From Euglena gracilis (lineage: Eukaryota): a stretch of DNA of 64,000 bases. The stretch lies in contig CP154954.1 of assembly GCA_039621445.1 (NCBI GenBank), forward strand, positions 5,131,955-5,195,954, read 5' to 3'. A model generated the notes under the pieces. The model saw nothing but the letters and a program-made list of their open reading frames with translations. It made no database searches and was not told where the DNA came from. Shown here piece after piece: positions 7,209 to 19,045 of the stretch (its first letter is position 1; each line of letters opens with the position of its first letter). The translations under genes and the position numbers were made by a program.

Positions 7209-7260
7209 CCACCACCACCACCACCACCACCACCACCACCACCACCACCACCACCACCAC

Positions 7261-7321
<61 letters not shown>

Positions 7322-7950
7322 ACCGCCGCCGCCGCCCCCGCGCCTCCGCCGCCCGCCGCCGCCCGCCGCCGCCTCGCCGCCGCCGGCCGCCGCCCTCCGC
7401 GGCCGCCAGCCCGCCGCCGCCGCCGCCGCCGCCGCCCTCCCCCGCGCCCCGCCGCCCGCCGCCCGCCGCCCACGCCCCGCCGCCCTCCTCCCGCCGCCCG
7501 CCCCCCCGCCGCCCTCCGCCCCGCCCCGCCGCCGCCTCCTCCCTCCTCCCGCCCGCGCCCTCCGCCCGCCGCCCGCCTCCCGCCGCCCTCCGCCCGCGCC
7601 CCCGCCCGCCGCCGCCGCCCTCCGCCCGCCGCCCCTCCGCCCGCCGCCCGCCGCCGCCCGCCCTCCCTCCGCCCGCCGCCACCGCCCGCCGCCCGCCGCC
7701 GCCCGCCGCCCTCCGCCCGCCGCCCGCCCCCTCCGCCCTCGTCCGCCCGCGCCCCGCCCCTCCCGCCGCCCCTCCTCCCACGCCCGCCGCCTCCCGCCGC
7801 CGCCTCCCTCCGCCCGCCTCCCGCCGCCCGCCCCCCGCCTCCAGCCTCCGCTCCTCCCGCCTCCCGCCTCCCTCCGCCGCCGCCTCGCGCCCGCCCCCCC
7901 GCCCTCCGCCCGCCCTCCTCCCGCCTCCGCTCCGCTTCCCCCAGCCACCA
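7209..7950. repeat. (CCA)n-(CCG)n microsatellite grading into degenerate CCG/CCCG repeat
   Basis: Directly visible; explains the long poly-Pro/Gly/Ala/Arg ORFs in several frames. Confidence 0.95.
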
Positions 7951-9049
7951 TGAGTTTTTTGTGACCACCGGTGCTGCAACAACTTTCCTTTTGTGTGCCA
8001 GCTGTGTCACTACAGCACGAAACCTTCCAGTTTCTTCCCATTTTTCTCCATTGCAAAGAAGGGCATTTGGTGGTATTTTTTTTCCCAGAAAGAAACACCG
8101 TCTGCTATGTATTTATGGCGACGCAGGGACAGATACCAATGTTCCAACGTTTGAACGGACACGGTGCTTCCACTACTTGGAGACCCTCCTGGTCAGCAGC
8201 TTTAAGCAGCCGATCTCACACTTAAGCTTTTCTCTGTTCTTTTGCAATTGCGCAAAGGAACTCGATGTGGTTTGAGTCCAGGTTTTTGAACCGCCGGCAC
8301 TCTGTGTGTGGATCTTCATCATTTCCGGGGGTGAACCATGCGTACAGGCCAAAATTGCTGCGTTTTCTAGTCTGCCAACCATCCCTGCTTATAGTTTTTC
8401 CTGCATTGAAAACATTTACAGCAGGAAAAATCATCGAAAATCTTGAATTTATCGGGTCCCAAAAAATGTCGTGAAGTATCGGCTTTATTGGGGGTGCGTG
8501 TTCTTTTTGCTGTTTTTTGGGGCCATTTTGGGATTCTCCAAAGTCACAAAATGAGCATATCGGGGCACAAAATGATCATATAGGTTTTATCGTCTTATAT
8601 CGAGGATATCGGGGTGTCAATCTATCAAAATTTATTGGGACCCCCCCCCAAACCCAATATCAATATCCATCCTTGATCCAGAAATATTCCATTCAGCTGG
8701 CATAAAAGTAATCGAACAAGCCCATTGCAGGATGCACGTCTTTTCAGGCTCAAACTGAAAGGGAGTTATTTTTTCTTTTTTGATTGGCAGCGGCGGTCCA
8801 ATGGCAGGTCGAACAGGGGTCGAAAATTAAACGTTGAGAAACTCATTTTTTGACGTTTTGGGTGGTTTGGCCAGAGATACCTTCCCTCTCCCCCGAAACT
8901 CGACCCGTTTTTACCAAAACATGGCCATGTTTTCGCCATTTTGCCTGTGCTGGGACTGGAATTTCTCTTTGGCTAAGGCTGCATCGTGCTGTACCAGCGA
9001 GCCTCTGCGCTGGAAAGGCGGCAAAAGAGTAGTGGAGTGCACACCTCAG

Positions 9050-9070
9050 GGCCCGCCCCGCCGCGCACAG
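9050..9070 (+). promoter_or_regulatory. Probable spliced-leader trans-splice acceptor (AG 9069-9070) of the SEC14 gene
   Basis: C-rich tract ending in CAG 25 nt before the ATG; similar arrangement at 19032-19033 and 55939-55940. Euglenozoan mRNAs are SL trans-spliced. Confidence 0.4.
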
Positions 9071-9095
9071 ACCGGCCGTCCCCCCGGTCCCCGCC

Positions 9096-12000
9096 ATGAT
9101 GGACACCTGGGCCCGGTGGCAGGCTGCAGAGCGGGCCCCCGACCTGCGCCCCTCGCACTACGACCTGGCGCTGGCCCCGGCGGAGCAGGCGGCGATGCAA
9201 GAGATGCACCGCCGGTGTGCCGGCATGGCTGTGCCATCAAGCGCGCGCGGGGGGGGGGGTAATCCTAGCAGCAGGATTTGACTGCAGGATTTGACCCCCA
9301 CCCAAAATCCAAAGTCCTGAAAATCACAAATTTTCAGTTTGCATTTTTGCTCCCCCCCGTATCAATGCAACTGGAGTGAACAAGCAACCACACTTTCCAG
9401 ATAGACTTGGGTGGTCGATGTGGGCGTCCGTTCCGTTTTTTTTCCCCCAGGTCTGTGTGCATACTTGTAGTTAGTGCGACCGGAAAAAATGTTTCCGTGC
9501 GCCGCGACTACCGCGGAATTTTTTTTTGAAACCGGCAGCGCCACGGCAAAAATTTTTCTGTGCGCCGCGCATGCCGCGGCACTGGTTTATGTGTGCGCCA
9601 CGACCGCCGTGGAAACTTTTGAAATTTGTGCCGCGACCACCATGGCAATTGTCTTTTTAAATTATGTGCCACATATACTTCCTTTCGGCCCCTTCCCCTG
9701 CCTGGCCTCTTTGATACTTTCTTGACCATGGTGCTGTGGGGCGGCCCCTTTGATGGTTCACAGGCACTGCGTCGGGGTAGACCCCCTGCCGAAGTTCCTG
9801 CAGGACGCCACGTTCCGGCACACTGTGTTCCGGCGCTACCTTGGCGCCCGCTCCTGGGACATCGACCGCGCGAGCCGCATGCTTGGCCGGTGTGTGCTAA
9901 TCCTTGGCCCAGACATACAGCGCCAGACGAACACCCCAAAAGACGAACCCCCCCCAAGCGCCAAAATGTGCATTCTTCGAGTTGATACAGGTTTGATATT
10001 AGCACAACCGAATTAGAAGTGCTTCCTTTCGTCCACCATTCACTTCCTCAATTCCATATTCTGCATATTTATTCCATACTAATTCCTATTCAGCTTTCAT
10101 CTTTTGTTATTTCCTTCGGCAACCTCCTTGGCCACCACATTATCAGTCAAGGATTGTTTGTCAAAATTCGACACCTCGAAAAATTCCAAAATGCACCCAG
10201 GGTTACCCTCTTTGACTCCAAATTTACCCCAATCCCCCCCAAAATGACAATCCTGATGATAGTTCGCAAGAGTTCGCACACAAAAGTTGCAACAAGTCTG
10301 TTTCTGGGGTTTTTTCGCAAAAGAAAGAGAAACAACCAGTCACAAGGCTCCTTTCTTTATCTTCACCAGGGAGGGGTGGTCTGTTGTATGCTGTCTGTTG
10401 GCTTGTCAGCCTGAGGTGGTATTTCATCAGTTAGGGGGGGAGAATGGGGGGTTGTAAGTTACAGGCCAAGGCTCCAACCGTGGCATTTTTTGGGAGGTTG
10501 CTGTGGTTGTGTGCATCCCTCCGTGAAATTTCAAGCCCCAGAGTGGCGGGATGTGCTGGTTGGGTTTGGGCTGCCGGGCTGTTGCTGGTGTTTGGGTTGA
10601 TCTCCCCGGGGTCCCCAAACCCACCCCAATGTTGCCCCCCCCCTCCACAGGACGCTCGCATGGCGGGCGGAGAACAAGATGGACACGCTGCCCTTCCTCC
10701 CGGCGCCCACCCACACCACTGCACCACCTCTTCTTCCACCCGCGCGGGGGGGGGGGGGCTTGAGGGCCACACCAGCTCTGTTTGAACATGACCTTTCACT
10801 TCAGATTGCACAGTGGATGTTGCCCGACCCCAGGGGAACATCCCTGTCGGGAACACTGGCAGTTTTTGTATTTTTTGCTTTTGCACCGTTTTGTAATTTT
10901 TTGTGTATTGTGAGGAGTTCCTGCGTTCCACACCCACCGCTGGCCACTACCTGGCATTTTTTTTGGCCAAGTTGCCGTGACCTGCCATTTGGCAAAGAAA
11001 TATGTCTCGTGCCCAAAAGCAAGTGAAAGGAAGTAGGAAGCAACCCTGCCATCTGATTTCGGGTGCAAGGACGTGCCCCCGATGGCTTCTCACGGGGCTA
11101 CCACCTGGACCCCCACAGCGATTTGTACGGCCGGGAGTTGCGGAGCGACCCGGTGACCGACCGCTTCCTGCAGCAGATCCAGAAGGTCCGCCCAACGGAT
11201 TGTTTGGCGGCGCTTGCCAACGACCCCCCTCCCTGAACGTCCAGGGTTTTGGAGTTGAAGTGGGTGATAGAAAAACAAGTTGTGTGTGTAAGCCTTGCCT
11301 GTTCTGCCGCTATCACCGCTCCATGTGTGTTTGCTTGCCAGGTGTACCACGGCACATGGCACATGTGGGACCGGGAGGGCAACCCGGTGTTCATCGAGCG
11401 GACCGGCTACTCCGATCCTCACCTTGGGCTCGGCAGACCCCCACCCCCACCCCCACACAGCCGGTGCCATCCGTTTTCTGTTTCTTTCCCAATACAACCC
11501 GACACATTGATTTCCATTGGAATACGGTCTTCTCGCATTTTGAAACTGGTTTTTAGTCCATTCTGCAAGGCATCACTGTAAGCAGGGTCGCTCCCTCGAA
11601 GAAGTCTCACCTTTGGCTGACCCAATCCAAACTTCAGCATACCCTGAACCCACATCAAACCAAAACCCTACCTGAATCCCAAGCTTCCAACTGCTAATGT
11701 TACCACGCCCCCATTCCATGCCACCCCCCTACCCTACCTCTCCTGATCCTCTCCCGGGGTTGTATCATATTCAAACACACCTGATGGTGATGTGAACACC
11801 CATTTTTTTTGAGCAATGTCCATGGTACGTACACACATATATGCACACATATATACGACAGAGGGGATGCTGACACACACAGTTTTCCAGGCTTCTGCTA
11901 AAGGTTCACAGTGACGCCAGAATTTCTGGAATGAAATCAGCCAAAAAGGCACATTAGAAACACGTGGCGCTGGAATAATTTTTCCAGTCAGGGGACCCCC

Positions 12001-15000
12001 AGGTGGTCCAGGTAGTAGCTTTTTCCAATGCCTAGGGAGTGGACCCCCGGGGTTCTCAATAGCCCCCCCAGGGAAATGCGCCCCAGGGGAATGCGCTGCC
12101 TGGGAAACTGTCCTCTGCCCTCTAACCTCTGCCCTCTGTACTTGCTAACCTATCCTCATATGAACCTGTCACCTGCCCTTGTCCCCACTGACCTGCACCT
12201 GATTTTTTGATTTGCCATTTTTTTGTTGAAAAAGGTATGTTTCCCTCGTGGATGATATTGGTTTTATTTTTTTTCCTGGCTTCGAATCGTGAATATGTTA
12301 AGACCCCCAGTGTCGGGTACCACACATTGTGCACACCGTGCGTCTTTCATGGCCTACTCTTTAAAAAAATTCGAACAATCAATGCGGACCATGTAATATT
12401 GTCAAAAAATTTATATTGGGGTCAAATTTCATCGAAAGGCGCACAGCGTGCAAAGTGTGCACGGTGTGTGGCACGGTGTGTGGCATGGTGTGGCACGGTG
12501 TGTGGCACGGTGGCACGGCGTGACACGGTGTGTGGCACGGCGTGGCACGGTGCGTGGCACGGCGTGGCACGGTGTGTGGCACGGTGTGCATAGTGTGCCG
12601 CACACCATGTGTCAGCCGCCCCCGAGAGCTACTTGCATAACCGCCCCCAACGACCCCCACCCGTTTTTTTCCCTGGCCGGCCCCAGCCCCCGCGCCATGG
12701 TGCGGATCGGCAAGGAGGCCGCCAAGGAGCGCGGTACGGGCACCAGCTTCGAGGAGGAAATCCTGCACGGGCACCTGCTGTCGATGGAGCTGGGGCTGCA
12801 CCTCACCAAGCTGCAGACGGCAAAGCTCCGTATGTCCCGGCCCCAAGTGACTCTGGAACGTTTCTTTCCTCTCCCCCTTTTTCTCCAACACAACTCCGAA
12901 TATTTATTCCTACAACAGCCGTATTTGACTGACATCGATTCTGACCACACGAAACATCTCATCATGGAATCACGGTATGCAAATATTTGGAACTATTATC
13001 ATTGTAAACCGACAGTGTCTGGAAATGCTCTCACAAATCATGAGCTATTTCCCATTGCAATTGACATGGCAATTTGCCATGTGCATTTCCAGCCCCTCCA
13101 AAAATTAATTAAAATTAATTCTTTCATCTATAGACAACCATTGCAGTTGGTTGGATTGCTTGGATTGGATGACCAGTGACTGAGAACACCTCCAAATTGA
13201 CCACACACATCTGTCTGTCAGATCGGCCCATCTTCCAGTTCACATACGTGCTGGACCTCAAAGGATACAAGCTGTCCCACCTCCACCAGCCAATTTTCTC
13301 CGGTGTGATACCTTTTCCACCCTAATTTTTTTCTTCCCCCCTCTGTCACATTGAATTAACTTTGAATTAAATTGTGGGTGTGGCATTCACCAGGCAGTTG
13401 CAGACAAATTGGAACAAGACCACCTCTTTATTTGCTCTTTGAACCATTTTGGAAATTTCCCCCCCTCCGAGGTCCTTCAGCAATGCCCTGACCTGAAGTC
13501 GGAGTCCGGTGGCTTTATTATTTGAGGGGTGGGTTGGAATTTGGGCGAAATTCCCCAAAAGAGCTCCACAAGAGCTCCGGGTCCCCAAGCCTTTTTTTTT
13601 GCTCTTTGAGCTGTTTTGCAAAATAGAAGCTCTTTTTATTATGCTTACTCTGGCCAAATTGCATCAATTTTTACTGATTCTCCCGATGTTTTTTTGGGGG
13701 TCATTTGTCCTCTTGGCTTCGTTTGCCTTCACTATTGTGTGGAGGGAGGCCTATTTTTTATTATTTGTGCAGCACATTATTTGCAAGTCATCAGGCAGGG
13801 TTCTCATTTGGGTTTTTAGAATCAGAGGGTCACAGAGCATACAAAATCGGTTGCGTAGGCCATTTTTGTACGTGTTTTTTTCCACAAGTTTTGGAGGCAT
13901 GTTGCTACTCTTCATTCAGAATCAAAACTTTGAAGAAGTCAATGCCTGTCTTGAACCTCCGTCGTCGTTTTGGCTTTGGGGTTTCCCTTTGTTCCCTTGT
14001 GACCTGCCGCGCGTGCCCACCATACTGCTTTTGTTGCAGCCCTCAAAGCGATCATTGAGAATGACAAGCGGCACTACCCGATTCGCCACCTCGCTAAGAG
14101 AAGACTGCCTCTGGGGCACCCTCTCTGCCCAATTCCTCTCTCATTGACCCTGCTGGCAGACGTCTATGTCAGTTGGGGGGGGATGTCTGGGCCAGGGCAG
14201 TATGGGAATCGGCCAAACAGCCAGGGTGGATGGGTGGGGAGACCGACCATCCCCCCACCCCCCACCACCGCCCGTCCTTGCGGGATCACCAATTTCCGAC
14301 CCCAAAAATTTTTCTGGGTGGATTTCTTAAACAAAACCCGTGAAAATGCTGTGGTGGGTGGGGGGGTCGACCCCCCCCCCAGGCCTTCCTGTGCAGCGCT
14401 CTCTGGGTCGCTGGACGGCAACTTTGTCGGGACCCCTCGGACCTCAGCGGGGGCGGTGGCGGCCGAGACGACCTGCCACGCCTTCGTCGTTAATGCCCCG
14501 AGCATCGTGACGGTGGCGTGGGCCCAGTGGTCCCCTGTGTTCCATTTCCACTCAACTGACAACACGAGAAACCCTCAACCTGTCAAAGTGCCTGGTGCCG
14601 CACTTTCCGAAAGACGAGTTGATGTTCATGTGCTTTTTCCATTTCGATCAACAAAACCAAGAGAATTGGAGACCACCAATTGCTTTGATGCATGCCTTCT
14701 GTTCAACGGGTTAATATTTTTTTCATGAATGCAGTGTGGGCAAACTTGCGGTTTTGTGTCATGTGTTTGTTCCCTTTCTTGTTTGTCTTCAACTGTTGCA
14801 ACGTTTATTTTGCGGAGCACTGCCCACAACATTATCAGCCCCCTTCTCGACCAGCGGACGCGGGAAAAGGTGCGCATCCTGGGCAGCAACTACCACCCGG
14901 CCCTCGAGAAGGTCATTGCTCCCGCCCAGTTGCCTCTCAGGAGGCACCCTTTTGGCCAGACTGCCTCCACACTGTTGCCATACGGAACACCTCCATCCCA

Positions 15001-16161
15001 ATCACCAGCTTGTTGGTGCTACCACAGAGTCTCTTAACTGTCCACCTGGAGGGATTGCTATCTTTGCCTCCACAATTGAGAAACAAAACTCGGAGTCATC
15101 CTTCTGTAAGAAGACACTATTGCTTTTAAATAATCATAGTAATTTAAAGGTCACATACGCTGTTTAACCATTTCATTAAGAAAACACAGGAAATTAATCA
15201 GCATTACCCCTGATTTGTATCATATAATGTCATGTTGCGTACATCTGTTGCTCAATGAGCTTTTCTTAATGAGCTGGACAAAATCTTTAAGCCACGATAT
15301 TCTTTTTCTGCTTGAAGACCCAGCCATGTGTCACTTGAGCTTTGAGGTGCAGGGATGCAGTGAAAACAGGAAAGTTTACAGACTAAATGCCTAAATCTTA
15401 CAGGGTGGGCAAAATTGGGGGGGGGAATTGTGGAAATCAAAAATTTTGGTCAAGTACCATAATTTCACCATAACAGTGTAGTTTTAGTAGTTATTCTTTT
15501 AGTATTCTTTCTAACCAGTTTCACCCTCTGGCATGAAGTTTCAGCCCAAAGTGACAAAAAATGGATGGAAAATGGTTGAAAATAGCCCGAAAATGACAAA
15601 AAATATCTATTTTGGCAAAGATTTACCTTTTGTGGCTTTTTTTGAGGCAAAATAGCCGGATTTTGTTCAGTGCCGCTATGAAAAAACAGGGGGGCTCCAC
15701 AAAAAATGGTTGAATAATTTTTTTTTTGCAAAAAACATTTTTTTTTAAGGTTGAAAATTTTCCGAGACTATTTTACGATATTTTTTTGCCGTAATTTTTG
15801 TATACCATCTGATTAATACTCACTTGAACTCTCGCGCTAACCCTTATTTTTTCCAGAAGCTTAAAATAAACCGTCGGTTACCTGATCACCCCTTCGGCTT
15901 AAAGTCCGTTTAACTTTTTTTGATTTATATAATTTGATTTTTTTTATACCACATTCATTTTAATACGATGAGAAAATATGACATATGACAGGCCAATTCA
16001 TTTTTGAATGTTTTTTTTTCCTTGTAGTCTACATTTGGTAATATTTTATACACAAATATTTCTGTTTGAAAATTTCCAACAGTTTTTGTGGCTTCTGGTG
16101 CCTCCCGCCACCGATCTTCCTTGGGGGCGAGTGCGAGTGCCCCGGGGGCTGTGTGCCATGA
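9096..16161 (+). CDS. SEC14/CRAL-TRIO domain lipid-binding/transfer protein, 319 aa; exons 9096-9214, 9764-9889, 10651-10708, 11081-11185, 11342-11420, 12692-12829, 13222-13302, 14040-14080, 14465-14521, 14828-14934, 16113-16161
   Basis: Exons sum to 960 nt with no internal stop. Hallmark motifs in order: FRRYLGARSWDIDRASRML..TLAWR (CRAL-TRIO N), HMWDREGNPVFIERTG..DP, FTYVLDLKG, HYPET..AFVVNAP..VAWNIISPLLDQRTREKVRILG, QLPIFLGGECECPGGC. Five GT-AG introns and five nonconventional introns. Confidence 0.93.
10709..11080 (+). other. Nonconventional intron (SEC14 intron 3)
   Basis: ACC-CAC..TGCACC ... GGTGCA..GTG-CCCCC; +4..+6 CAC pairs with -8..-6 GTG; joins PAP|DGF. Confidence 0.8.
11421..12691 (+). 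other. Nonconventional intron (SEC14 intron 5)
   Basis: ACC-TTGGGCTCGGC ... GCCGGCCCCAG-CCCCC; joins GAT CCT C|GC GCC ATG (DPRAM); no GT donor near the exon end. Confidence 0.8.
12455..12600. repeat. GTGGCACG/GTGTGGCAC tandem minisatellite
   Basis: Directly visible, inside SEC14 intron 5. Confidence 0.9.
14081..14464 (+). other. Nonconventional intron (SEC14 intron 8)
   Basis: ATT-CGCCACC ... GGTGGCG-GCC stem; removal restores the conserved HYPE motif. Exact boundary uncertain by about 1 nt. Confidence 0.85.
14522..14827 (+). other. Nonconventional intron (SEC14 intron 9), full consensus match
   Basis: GCC-CAGTGGTCC ... GGAGCACTG-CCCAC; joins VAW|NIISP. Confidence 0.9.
14935..16112 (+). 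other. Nonconventional intron (SEC14 intron 10)
   Basis: TCT-CAGGAGGCACC ... GGTGCCTCCCG-CCACC, 10 of 11 pairs in the +4/-6 register; joins TTG CC|G ATC (QLPIFLGG). Confidence 0.9.
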
Positions 16162-19045
16162 GGTGCCTTACCCCCTTTCACTGTACAACAGCCTCAGCCA
16201 CCCTGTTGGCTTGATGTCTTGCACACCCCCCTCTCACCCACGGCATCTTTTTTGGCTGACCAGGATTGGCACTGCAAAAGCAAGGACGGATGTGCAAGTT
16301 TCACAATTGCCCAGAATTTTTGCAGGAATGTAAAAAGTGATTTCGAACCTTTGGCTATCAGTCATTTTACAACTCTAAAAGGCAATGAATGCTGGACAGA
16401 TTGTCATTCCACATCTCGAGAGGTGAATCTCTGGAAAATTTTTCAAACGGAAGAGCAATTTCCCCGAACAATCACCCAGATAAAAATTCGGAGGTCAAAG
16501 TTTGGGGGGAAAAAACACAAAAAATCACACATTTCCCCAAAAATTCATGTCTCCATTTCCTCAAAAAAAACGTTTCTCAGTGCTTCTGCGACGTGGGTGG
16601 GGATGGGGAATCGCAGACCCCGACAAGGGTGATGTTGCCGACGGGGGGGGGGCATTTTCGACCCGATTATTGTGGTCCTCCAGCCCTCCGAAAATGGTCC
16701 TCTTCAGGGGTCTGGGCCAGAAAACCGAGTCAGTCACTCGGTCACTCTGAAAAACCAGCCCCCCCCCACCCCTGGGTCGGCCAGTGTGTCGGGCGTTACA
16801 TGGACCCCAACGTTGTGCATTCCACCGGAAACCGGAATACGATGCGGTGGGTTGCGTCCACACCTCTGGTGGGAGGCGCCGGGGAGGGGGGGTTGGCCAA
16901 CTTCCAGTCTGCTTGGCCCCGGGTGCCCGGCGTCAGGGCGTGCCCATCTGCCCTGCCCACCCGGAGCTGTCGCTGTCCCTGTGATGCCCCACGTGACCCC
17001 TTTGCCGCCACACCGGCTGCCACTGTGGCGGCCCCATTGGCCCCGGGGCAACCCGTTTTCCCTGCCAGGGAGCTGCAAACCACGGACGATTTTTCCATTT
17101 TTGTTTCGTCCCCTCCCCCAGGGCTTTCCATAACTGATTTCTGTGGCCTCTCCAATTGAAACCCTTTGCATGCTTCTGACTGGTTTGTGCATAACATGGT
17201 GTTCCCCCAGCAATTTTCTTTGTGATAATGTTTTCCTCAAAGTAGACGGCACGCAAAGCACAAGATCACCAAAAATACAAATAGATTTAAAACTGCGAGT
17301 TGAAGTTTATGCATTTTGAGGGGGGCCGGGTGTGACAACGTTTTCGTGCCCCTGTCGCTTTCCCTTGTTGGCCCTCGTCCCTTGCCTCGCCCCAAACCTT
17401 CGAAAGGCGACCCCATGTGCAGCGCATGCCTCAGGTTGCTGGGGCAGCCAACTCTGGCCGGCACTGGCCCCTACCCTCATTGCTGATGACGCAGAATTCA
17501 GCTGATTCAGTGTTCACTCATTTGTGCCGACCCCAACCCAAATCCAACCCCCCCAAATAAGATCGCCTGTGATTTTCAGAAAAAGCTCCAAAGCAACCCC
17601 CAATGAAACTATTAAAATCCCAAAATGGGTGACATTCTGACCTTTTTATTTTTTCTTGTGTCAAATTTGCCATTTTTTTCCCGGATGATTTTTGTTCATT
17701 ACAACATCCTGTTTGGACCTATTTGCAAGGCTTTTTTTCAGCTGAAACCTTAAAAAAGAAACACCCCAATTAAGACCCCAATGTGGTTTGAAGAAACACC
17801 CGATTTGACTTTTGGAGGGGATTTTATTTCTTGGGCCAAACTTCTTTCACGATACTTGGCGACAGCGGCATCCAGGGTAGACTCCTCCCCGCGAAGAGGG
17901 GCTGCAACAGCGCCCAAACTGCGCCGCTGCAACAATGCTAGCTCAGCCAGCTGACACCTTTTTTGTTGCTGGGCGAGCCAAAAAGCGCTTTGCATCATTT
18001 TTTTTTTTGATGCAAAGCGCCTGAAGTCTTTTGAAAAGGTGGTCAAGAATCGTTAATCACAATGTGACTTTGAGGGGTTTGTGGGAGGGGGGTTTGGTGT
18101 TGCTGCTTACTTTTTCTTGAAACAGTGCTTGGTCGCCCTTTATCCTTTCCTGTGTTTTTTTTTGTTGTTGTTTTGGCTCCTCCCCCCTCCAGCACCCTCA
18201 CCCTGCTCGTTGGCCTACATTTTCAGCCCTAGCCCAGCAACTCTTAACGAGAATCTGCATGGTTGGGTGGGTCGACCACACGAAACCCAGCTTGGCAGCG
18301 CGGGACTGGCGGGAAAGCCTCTGTTTAGCACAATGTGGTACCATTCTTCAATCATCCGCACCACTGATCTGCAATTTCCCAACGCTTTCGTTGCCTTTTC
18401 CTGTGTCCCTCAGATTTTTATTTGACTTCTGCATTTCGATCACGTGAAACTCCAGGGACAATGCATTATTACAACTTCCTACAATGTCAGCAATTTACGC
18501 AAGGTTTCACAATTTTTGTTTCACCACAGTAAGAGGCAATGGTCCTGCAAATTTCCCAGGGCCTCCGACATCAATCCCCCCCTTTTTGATTTGGAACTCT
18601 TTTTGATTGCAGTTGAATTTTTCTCACGACGGCAGCTTTGAGCCAAAGCGATGGTGACACCTCTCACACCGTGCTTGCACTTTTTTCACAAATAGATTAT
18701 TTTTCCCCCTAAATGATGCAGAACTGATATGGTTACAGAATTGATATGGTTACTTCAATGACAACACAACAACACAACACCCAAAAATACAACTTATGAA
18801 AGAGCAGATGAATTCCTTCCGTTAATATTTAAAAAGCCCAATGTTTTGACACCACGCACCGGACGCGGCTAAACCTGAGCTGGGCTTCAAAGAACTCTGG
18901 TGAACCAAAATAAAAACGGGCAAACCCAGCATTCACACACCCTCTGCAGCCACCCCTCACCTCGCCGCCAAATGAATTCGGGTGTGTGGTCCTGACCATC
19001 ACAGTGTTCCGGCTGCTGAACTTCTACCTGTAGTCCCTGGTCATC

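Follow-up and report, generated by a model that had tools for sequence, protein, structure and literature searches.

A Sec14-like gene of Euglena gracilis that combines conventional GT-AG and nonconventional introns

Euglenid nuclear genes such as tubA, tubB, gapC, and hsp90 are described as carrying GT-AG introns alongside nonconventional introns with non-GT-AG borders and base-paired ends (Milanowski 2014, 2016; Guminska 2018). Here, we analyzed a further gene of this build, a Sec14-like gene on the + strand of a 64,000-nucleotide (nt) stretch of Euglena gracilis DNA (GenBank assembly GCA_039621445.1, contig CP154954.1), which we call the window. For E. gracilis, 11,527 GT-AG, 659 GC-AG, and 16,151 nonconventional introns have been counted among 28,337 (~57% nonconventional; Gao 2024). 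In E. agilis, 71.8% of the introns are nonconventional, a share reported to be comparable in E. gracilis, and many genes hold both intron classes (Nomura 2025). Nonconventional introns are described by a splicing code, 5′-N3CDG-/-CH′GN5-6|R, which 61.2% of them fit and roughly 39% do not; the terminal helix with its fixed spacers and the downstream purine have been defined genetically (Nomura 2025). Furthermore, these introns are removed later than conventional ones (Guminska 2018), and full-length circular excision products have been reported for tubA (Guminska 2021, as given in the review PMC11282704 and in Nomura 2025).

Compared with the four euglenid genes, the locus shows the same non-GT-AG borders and base-paired intron ends, the same direct repeats at some junctions with a purine next, GT-AG introns alongside, and trans-splicing to a spliced leader. 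It differs in its host gene and in nothing of kind. Mixed introns are already known and are the norm in E. gracilis, and the gene is typical rather than exceptional in this respect. If the introns of a ten-intron gene are drawn independently at the published proportion (12,186/28,337 conventional), a mixed set is expected with a probability of ~0.996 and an exact 5:5 division with ~0.22.

Gene structure and protein product

Four public runs were aligned to window positions 8000-18000. X1 and X3 are transcript-contig runs from different studies, provisionally classed as RNA (0.09-0.17 of the words of the stretch), and X21 is a raw RNA-seq run, of which ~5% was read and for which counts sum both mate directions. 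X20 is a DNA contig run with 0.71 of the words of the stretch, covering 30/30 bins of the aligned region. Joints are written as last exon base > first exon base. The term slide denotes an equivalent cut allowed by a short direct repeat at the junction, and every slide was enumerated for each joint.

The + strand of the region alternates between GC-rich blocks (0.53-0.74) and less GC-rich stretches (0.37-0.62), and fragments of a Sec14-like protein are spread over its stop-to-stop frames. Between position 9096, the A of the ATG, and position 16161, the final base of the TGA stop, the RNA data contain ten joints within the coding sequence (CDS), five of them GT..AG and five non-GT-AG (Table 1). 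The borders of the latter, as placed, are CC..CC, CA..CC, AT..CC, GC..AC, and CT..AC. All ten joints are present in one X1 contig (word depth 355) and nine in an X3 contig (word depth 106), which begins at 9763 in exon 2 and has a loose end of 13 nt matching the end of exon 1. With three further joints in the 3′ untranslated region (UTR), 13 joints are supported in X21 by 6 to 105 reads each, while the DNA run X20 contains none of the ten CDS joints and 0/13 overall. Depth in X21 was 0-0.04 in wholly intronic bins versus 4-19 in exon bins, and RNA depth finishes by ~17685.

At the 5′ end, 17 X21 reads carry the loose end ATTTTTTTTC directly before G 9070 of the window and thus spell ATTTTTTTTCG. 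Yoshida 2016 gives TATTTTTTTTCG as the conserved spliced-leader 3′ end of E. gracilis; the spliced-leader sequence was also looked for in Guminska 2018 and not found there. As the reads bear the 3′ end of the spliced leader next to a genomic AG, the mRNA acquires the spliced leader by trans-splicing at AG 9069-9070, which leaves a mature 5′ UTR of 25 nt (9071-9095).

An earlier note, made from the letters of the window alone, had proposed five GT-AG and five other introns for this gene. This count proved exact in RNA from three studies. The RNA data could have placed GT-AG joints elsewhere or yielded no spliced transcript; they confirm the structure to the base. The five junctions said to be without a usable GT-AG pair indeed have no GT/GC..AG reading at any slide (5/5). 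The junctions fixed by protein motifs are right: DP|RAM, HYP|ET, and AW|NII agree with the RNA joints and the fifth junction is LPA|PDGF. Only LP|IFLGG deviates, by 1-3 nt, as the joint seen in RNA falls at L|P or within the Pro codon.

The joined exons amount to 960 nt (319 codons and the TGA), so that the 319-amino-acid (aa) product named in the earlier note is borne out. The spliced product is identical to the EukProt protein EG_transcript_14713 (P0001; 319 aa) at 318/319 residues, with A239V as the sole difference, and the prefix "EG_transcript_" marks E. gracilis transcripts in Ebenezer 2019. Judged by this match and by the spliced-leader end on the reads, the source is a euglenid, almost certainly E. 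gracilis, in line with the euglenid origin read earlier from the sequence.

Profile scores were measured on P0001. Pfam CRAL_TRIO (PF00650) matched aa 138-309 with an E-value of 5.5e-31 (107.9 bits versus a cut-off of 22.6), unbroken over junctions 5 to 10. SEC14-like protein 2 (SEC14L2, PDB 4omj) matched aa 84-316 (E 5.7e-23), spanning junction 3 too, and yeast Sec14p (PDB 1aua) matched with E 2.2e-14. Translations of single exons gave only weak Pfam matches, exon 10 excepted. The earlier note had also suggested looking for CRAL_TRIO_N (PF03765). CRAL_TRIO was found, but CRAL_TRIO_N stayed below threshold, with 14.1 bits for exon 2 alone against a cut-off of 23 and no listing at E ≤ 0.1 for the whole protein. 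The product thus has the CRAL_TRIO lipid-binding domain in common with SEC14-like protein 2 and yeast Sec14p, but differs from them in this subthreshold CRAL_TRIO_N and, with only 319 aa, in having no GOLD domain. EG_transcript_14713 is not named in the literature searched, and no E. gracilis Sec14 or CRAL-TRIO protein was among the literature matches listed. Datasets S5-S8 of Nomura 2025 and Table S1 of Gao 2024 may already contain the gene model and the 3′ UTR isoforms.

Table 1. Features of the Sec14-like gene in window coordinates; read counts are from X21, and contigs are from X1 and X3.
Feature	Positions	Strand	Borders or ends	Length (nt)	Joint	Slide	Evidence
Outron AG acceptor (spliced-leader trans-splice site)	9069-9070	+	AG				17 X21 reads
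Exon 1, coding from ATG	9096-9214	+					RNA joints
Intron 1, conventional	9215-9763	+	GTGTG...CACAG	549	9213>9763	GT..AG at +1	44 reads, X1 contig
Exon 2	9764-9889	+					RNA joints; weak CRAL_TRIO_N match, E 0.054
Intron 2, conventional	9890-10650	+	GTGTG...C-rich tract...CACAG	761	9888>10650		25 reads, 2 contigs
Exon 3 (end readable 10705 to 10708)	10651-10705	+					RNA joints, slides
Intron 3, nonconventional	10706-11077	+	CC..CC	372	10705>11078	0 to +3	37 reads, 2 contigs, 0 in DNA
Exon 4	11078-11185	+					RNA joints
Intron 4, conventional	11186-11341	+	GTCCG...GCCAG	156	11183>11340		33 reads
Exon 5	11342-11419	+					RNA joints; weak CRAL_TRIO match
Intron 5, nonconventional	11420-12690	+	CA..CC	1271	11419>12691	0 to +1	40 reads, 2 contigs
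Exon 6	12691-12829	+					RNA joints; translation retrieves P0001, 100% identity
Intron 6, conventional	12830-13221	+	GTATG...GTCAG	392	12829>13222		72 reads
Exon 7	13222-13302	+					RNA joints
Intron 7, conventional	13303-14039	+	GTGTG...TGCAG	737	13301>14039		90 reads
Exon 8	14040-14080	+					RNA joints
Intron 8, nonconventional	14081-14464	+	AT..CC	384	14080>14465	unique cut	105 reads, 2 contigs
Exon 9	14465-14521	+					RNA joints
Intron 9, nonconventional	14522-14827	+	GC..AC	306	14521>14828	unique cut	88 reads, 2 contigs
Exon 10	14828-14932	+					RNA joints; CRAL_TRIO 3e-05 on exon 10 alone
Intron 10, nonconventional	14933-16110	+	CT..AC	1178	14932>16111	0 to +2	96 reads, 2 contigs
Exon 11, coding part, ends TGA	16111-16161	+					RNA joints
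3′ UTR intron, nonconventional, form 1	16256-16952	+	CT..CC			0 to +3	6 reads, X3 contig, 0 in DNA
3′ UTR intron, nonconventional, form 2	16280-16958	+	GC..CC				17 reads, an X1 contig, 0 in DNA
Second 3′ UTR intron, nonconventional	17063-17359	+	N3-CAG...CTG-N5|T	297			51 reads, 0 in DNA

Borders and end pairing of the two intron classes

The five GT-AG introns have the borders of conventional (U2-type) E. gracilis introns. Three begin with GTGTG and the others with GTCCG and GTATG, all five have a G at +5, and all five end with CAG. A 5′ splice site GTGTG, complementary to U1, and a 3′ splice site CAG are the published consensus (Gao 2024). None of the five CDS nonconventional introns and none of the three 3′ UTR forms can be read as GT/GC..AG at any slide; intron 9 begins with GC, yet ends with AC. 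Direct repeats allow slides of 3, 1, and 2 nt in introns 3, 5, and 10, with CCC repeated at both junctions of intron 3, whereas the cuts of introns 8 and 9 are unique. At a permitted slide, the next exon begins with a purine in 5/5 CDS introns (G, G, G, A, and G for introns 3, 5, 8, 9, and 10).

Compared with the published code, these introns give a mixed picture. Intron 9 (followed by A) and the 3′ UTR intron 17063-17359 carry N3-CAG...CTG-N5, and intron 10 at slide +2 (14935-16112) carries N3-CAG...CCG-N5|G, behind which eight additional pairs form. Introns 3 and 5 retain the spacer register and the purine, while the triplets differ from the code: intron 3 at slide +3 (10709-11080) reads N3-CAC...GTG-N5|G with three pairs, and intron 5 at slide +1 reads N3-TTG...CAG-N5|G (U.G, U-A, and G-C, plus two more pairs). 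Intron 8 contains a perfect helix of 7 bp between +4..+10 and −10..−4 with spacers of 3 nt on both sides, and an alternative reading is CGC...GTG-N6|G. Three pairs in the register +4..+6/−8..−6 are found in three of the five CDS nonconventional introns.

Pairing between intron ends was assessed by the duplex energy of the 20-nt ends, 500 dinucleotide shuffles, a fold of 10 nt + U7 + 10 nt (Gao 2024), and the minimum free energy (MFE) fold of the whole intron. The 20-nt duplexes ranged from −13.3 to −19.9 kcal/mol in all eight nonconventional forms (five CDS introns and three UTR forms), compared with −3.1 to −12.4 kcal/mol in the five GT-AG introns. The 10 + U7 + 10 fold gave 0 to −1.4, −6.5, −14.5, −5.7, and −3.1 to −4.4 kcal/mol for introns 3, 5, 8, 9, and 10, and −7.2, −0.6, −1.0, 0.0, and −1.9 kcal/mol for GT-AG introns 1, 2, 4, 6, and 7. 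End-to-end pairs in the MFE fold numbered 7, 12, 8, 11, and 8 in the first set and 16, 0, 0, 0, and 5 in the second. Shuffled ends reached the observed energy in a fraction of 0.030 for intron 8 and 0.000 for intron 10 (0/500 reached −19.8 kcal/mol); with 12-nt ends, intron 8 had a z-value of −3.3. A structure that brings the intron ends together is therefore predicted by these folds for the five CDS nonconventional introns. The complementary ends described earlier hold overall, with strong pairing in introns 8 and 10 and moderate pairing in introns 5 and 9, but are weak in intron 3. No inverted repeats of ≥30 nt occur in 8000-18000; the introns thus have only short terminal helices and no long terminal inverted repeats like those of MITEs (miniature inverted-repeat transposable elements). 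As a separate observation, intron 5 contains a tandem repeat at 12455-12588 with a period of 12 nt and ~12 copies (GTGTGGCACGGT); tandem repeats are mentioned for E. gracilis introns in Gao 2024.

Introns of the 3′ UTR, repeats, and sequence variants

Downstream of the stop, a second open reading frame was sought, and only proline-rich open stretches without family evidence were found; the region is therefore treated as 3′ UTR. It holds two nonconventional introns, the first in two forms. These forms (16256-16952 and 16280-16958) overlap but share neither end, like the "overlapping" alternative splicing described by Gao 2024; here, however, the event lies in the 3′ UTR and shifts no reading frame. 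The second intron (17063-17359) is followed by T and not by a purine, in which it departs from the code.

Regarding sequence variants, single-base differences from the window at 9128, 9200, 9884, 10657, 11098, and 16189 were present in the RNA runs and equally in X20. Being common to RNA and DNA, they reflect variation between strains or alleles and not editing. Within a 3′ UTR run of C, an extra C at 17031 occurs in the X3 contig and in 20/54 X21 reads and is absent from the DNA run X20; it is probably an allelic homopolymer-length variant.

Three segments in and beside the gene, at 8334-8675, 9336-9700 (intron 1), and 14192-14381 (intron 8), had a summed DNA-contig word depth in X20 that exceeds the baseline of ~37 by a factor of 100 to 1000, and partial contigs and loose ends are numerous there. 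The pattern points to dispersed repeats in high copy number or to G/C runs of low complexity, and blastn found no second copy of the three segments within the 64-kb window. A C-rich simple repeat of ~720 bp (7209-7930) precedes the trans-splice site by ~1.1 kb, consisting of (CCA)n followed by degenerate (CCG)n with a period of 7; local GC content reaches 0.89, and all six frames are open.

Proposed removal of the introns and its alternatives

We consider it very likely that the region from 9071 to ~17685 (+) is an E. gracilis nuclear gene for a Sec14-like (CRAL_TRIO) lipid-binding protein of 319 aa, the transcript of which is trans-spliced and loses five conventional and seven nonconventional introns as follows. 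The outron and the five GT-AG introns, with their GTGTG-type starts, G at +5, and CAG ends, would be removed via the spliceosome. The seven nonconventional introns, of which the CDS has five and the 3′ UTR two, would be recognized by a short helix between the intron ends, set back from the 5′ end by ~3 nt and from the 3′ end by 5-6 nt, together with a purine as the first base of the exon that follows. A separate machinery would cut them after the conventional introns and release them as circles. The exon–intron map, the trans-splice site, the product of splicing, and the capacity of the intron ends to pair are direct observations, and we infer from them and from the published work which machinery acts on which intron.

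X1 contributes low-depth contigs inside introns 5, 9, and 10 (11551-11704, 14544-14768, and 14937-16098; depth 2.8-5.6 versus 355 for the mRNA), and its depth was non-zero in 6/6 bins wholly inside introns 5 and 10 and 0 in 3/3 bins inside GT-AG introns 2 and 7. Late removal or the persistence of excised introns would account for these contigs, but so would DNA carry-over. No back-joint (head-to-tail) was among the joints listed for 8000-18000.

Several points weigh against this account. Only one of the five CDS nonconventional introns, intron 9, fits the code strictly; the other four depart from the CDG/CH′G triplets, which places them within the ~39% that do not fit in Nomura 2025. In intron 10, the middle pair is an A.C mismatch, so that two of three pairs are formed in register, and in intron 5, U.G replaces C-G. 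In intron 3, the third pair is inverted and the terminal pairing is weak in the 10 + U7 + 10 fold. In intron 8, the spacer between the strong helix and the 3′ end measures 3 nt instead of 5-6 nt. A shuffle fraction of 0.16-0.29 reached the observed energy for introns 3, 5, and 9; individual significance is confined to introns 8 and 10, and much of the pairing therefore comes from base composition. Conversely, the ends of the GT-AG intron 1 pair with −12.4 kcal/mol over 20 nt and with 16 pairs in the MFE fold, so that pairing alone cannot separate the classes. Intron 1 has no nonconventional motif in register and resembles the "conventional/intermediate" introns of Milanowski 2016. Lastly, nothing in the data assigns a machinery to individual introns. 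Of the "two splicing systems" claimed in the earlier note, the two intron classes stand and two systems are the prevailing inference, but they are not an established fact, as spliceosome independence in E. gracilis is said to need experimental verification (Gao 2024). The same note had called the removal machinery unidentified, with which the discussion in Nomura 2025 agrees, where the trans-acting factors are still called unknown.

The pairing of intron 1 also suits a different explanation, namely that one divergent spliceosome removes all twelve introns as a single system and tolerates odd borders when a helix holds the ends. In some other species, nonconventional splicing depends on the spliceosome (Gao 2024), and 0.8% of E. 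agilis introns bear both kinds of motif (Nomura 2025). Nevertheless, we regard a single spliceosome as unlikely. The nonconventional introns of this gene have neither the GT 5′ splice site nor the CAG 3′ splice site, and the later removal (Guminska 2018) and the circular, non-lariat products (review PMC11282704) reported for such introns speak against it. Moreover, the genetically defined code is unrelated to recognition by U1 and U2AF, and Nomura 2025 makes the case for separate trans factors.

The five non-GT-AG joints could in principle be artefacts of mis-assembly or of a reverse transcriptase that switched templates at short direct repeats, and direct repeats of 1-3 nt flank three of the five, as template switching yields. 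The joints of introns 8 and 9 have no such repeat, however, and each of the five has 37-105 reads that start at many different positions, as well as contigs from two further studies. Unspliced coverage is ~0, the CRAL_TRIO domain is continuous once the introns are removed, and a protein from a separate transcriptome collection agrees at 318/319 residues. Repeat-free junctions, coverage, reading frame, and the independent transcriptome effectively refute an artefact, to which we give next to no credence.

It is extremely improbable as well that the mRNA stems from another place in the genome, be it a retrocopy or a paralogue that lacks the introns or is spliced differently. The sequence compared is this locus alone, which leaves room for such a source; yet the RNA reads carry variants of the locus that are also in the DNA run (9128, 9200, 9884, 10657, and 16189), and a retrocopy is rejected by the complete bin coverage of X20, in which no contig has any of the 13 joined forms.

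The consensus of the U12 5′ splice-site box is RTATCCTT. Although intron 8 begins with AT and introns 9 and 10 can end with AC, the chance that the odd introns are U12-type (AT-AC) or tRNA-like with a bulge-helix-bulge is negligible: no intron combines AT with AC, none of the 5′ ends inspected has the U12 box, and Rfam has 0 matches in the window at gathering thresholds, so that U12-type, tRNA-type, and self-splicing introns are rejected, in accordance with the structure described as unlike self-splicing introns or those of tRNAs in Guminska 2018.

For the biology of E. gracilis, the result is a base-accurate, RNA-supported model of one Sec14-like gene, with little import beyond annotation. 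It further shows that euglenid nonconventional introns can be recognized from protein motifs by a reader of the sequence alone. The question of the removal machinery is a real one; for testing it, the locus offers no advantage over the introns already catalogued, which number in the hundreds of thousands, or over the existing knock-in assay (Nomura 2025). As a mildly useful by-product, introns 3, 5, 8, and 10 are natural, efficiently spliced introns off the strict code and are potential test cases. Splicing of introns 3 and 8 is complete, with 37 and 105 reads across the junctions and an intron depth of ~0, although neither has the published CDG/CH′G triplets. Provided that their pairing is not due to chance, it is conceivable, though we are doubtful, that the machinery reads the helix geometry and the purine downstream, not the triplet letters, and tolerates an inverted third pair. 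With two introns and an estimated chance of ~0.1 for an in-register match in each, this is a lead and not a finding. If true, some of the ~39% of nonconventional introns now outside the published code would come under a wider version of it.

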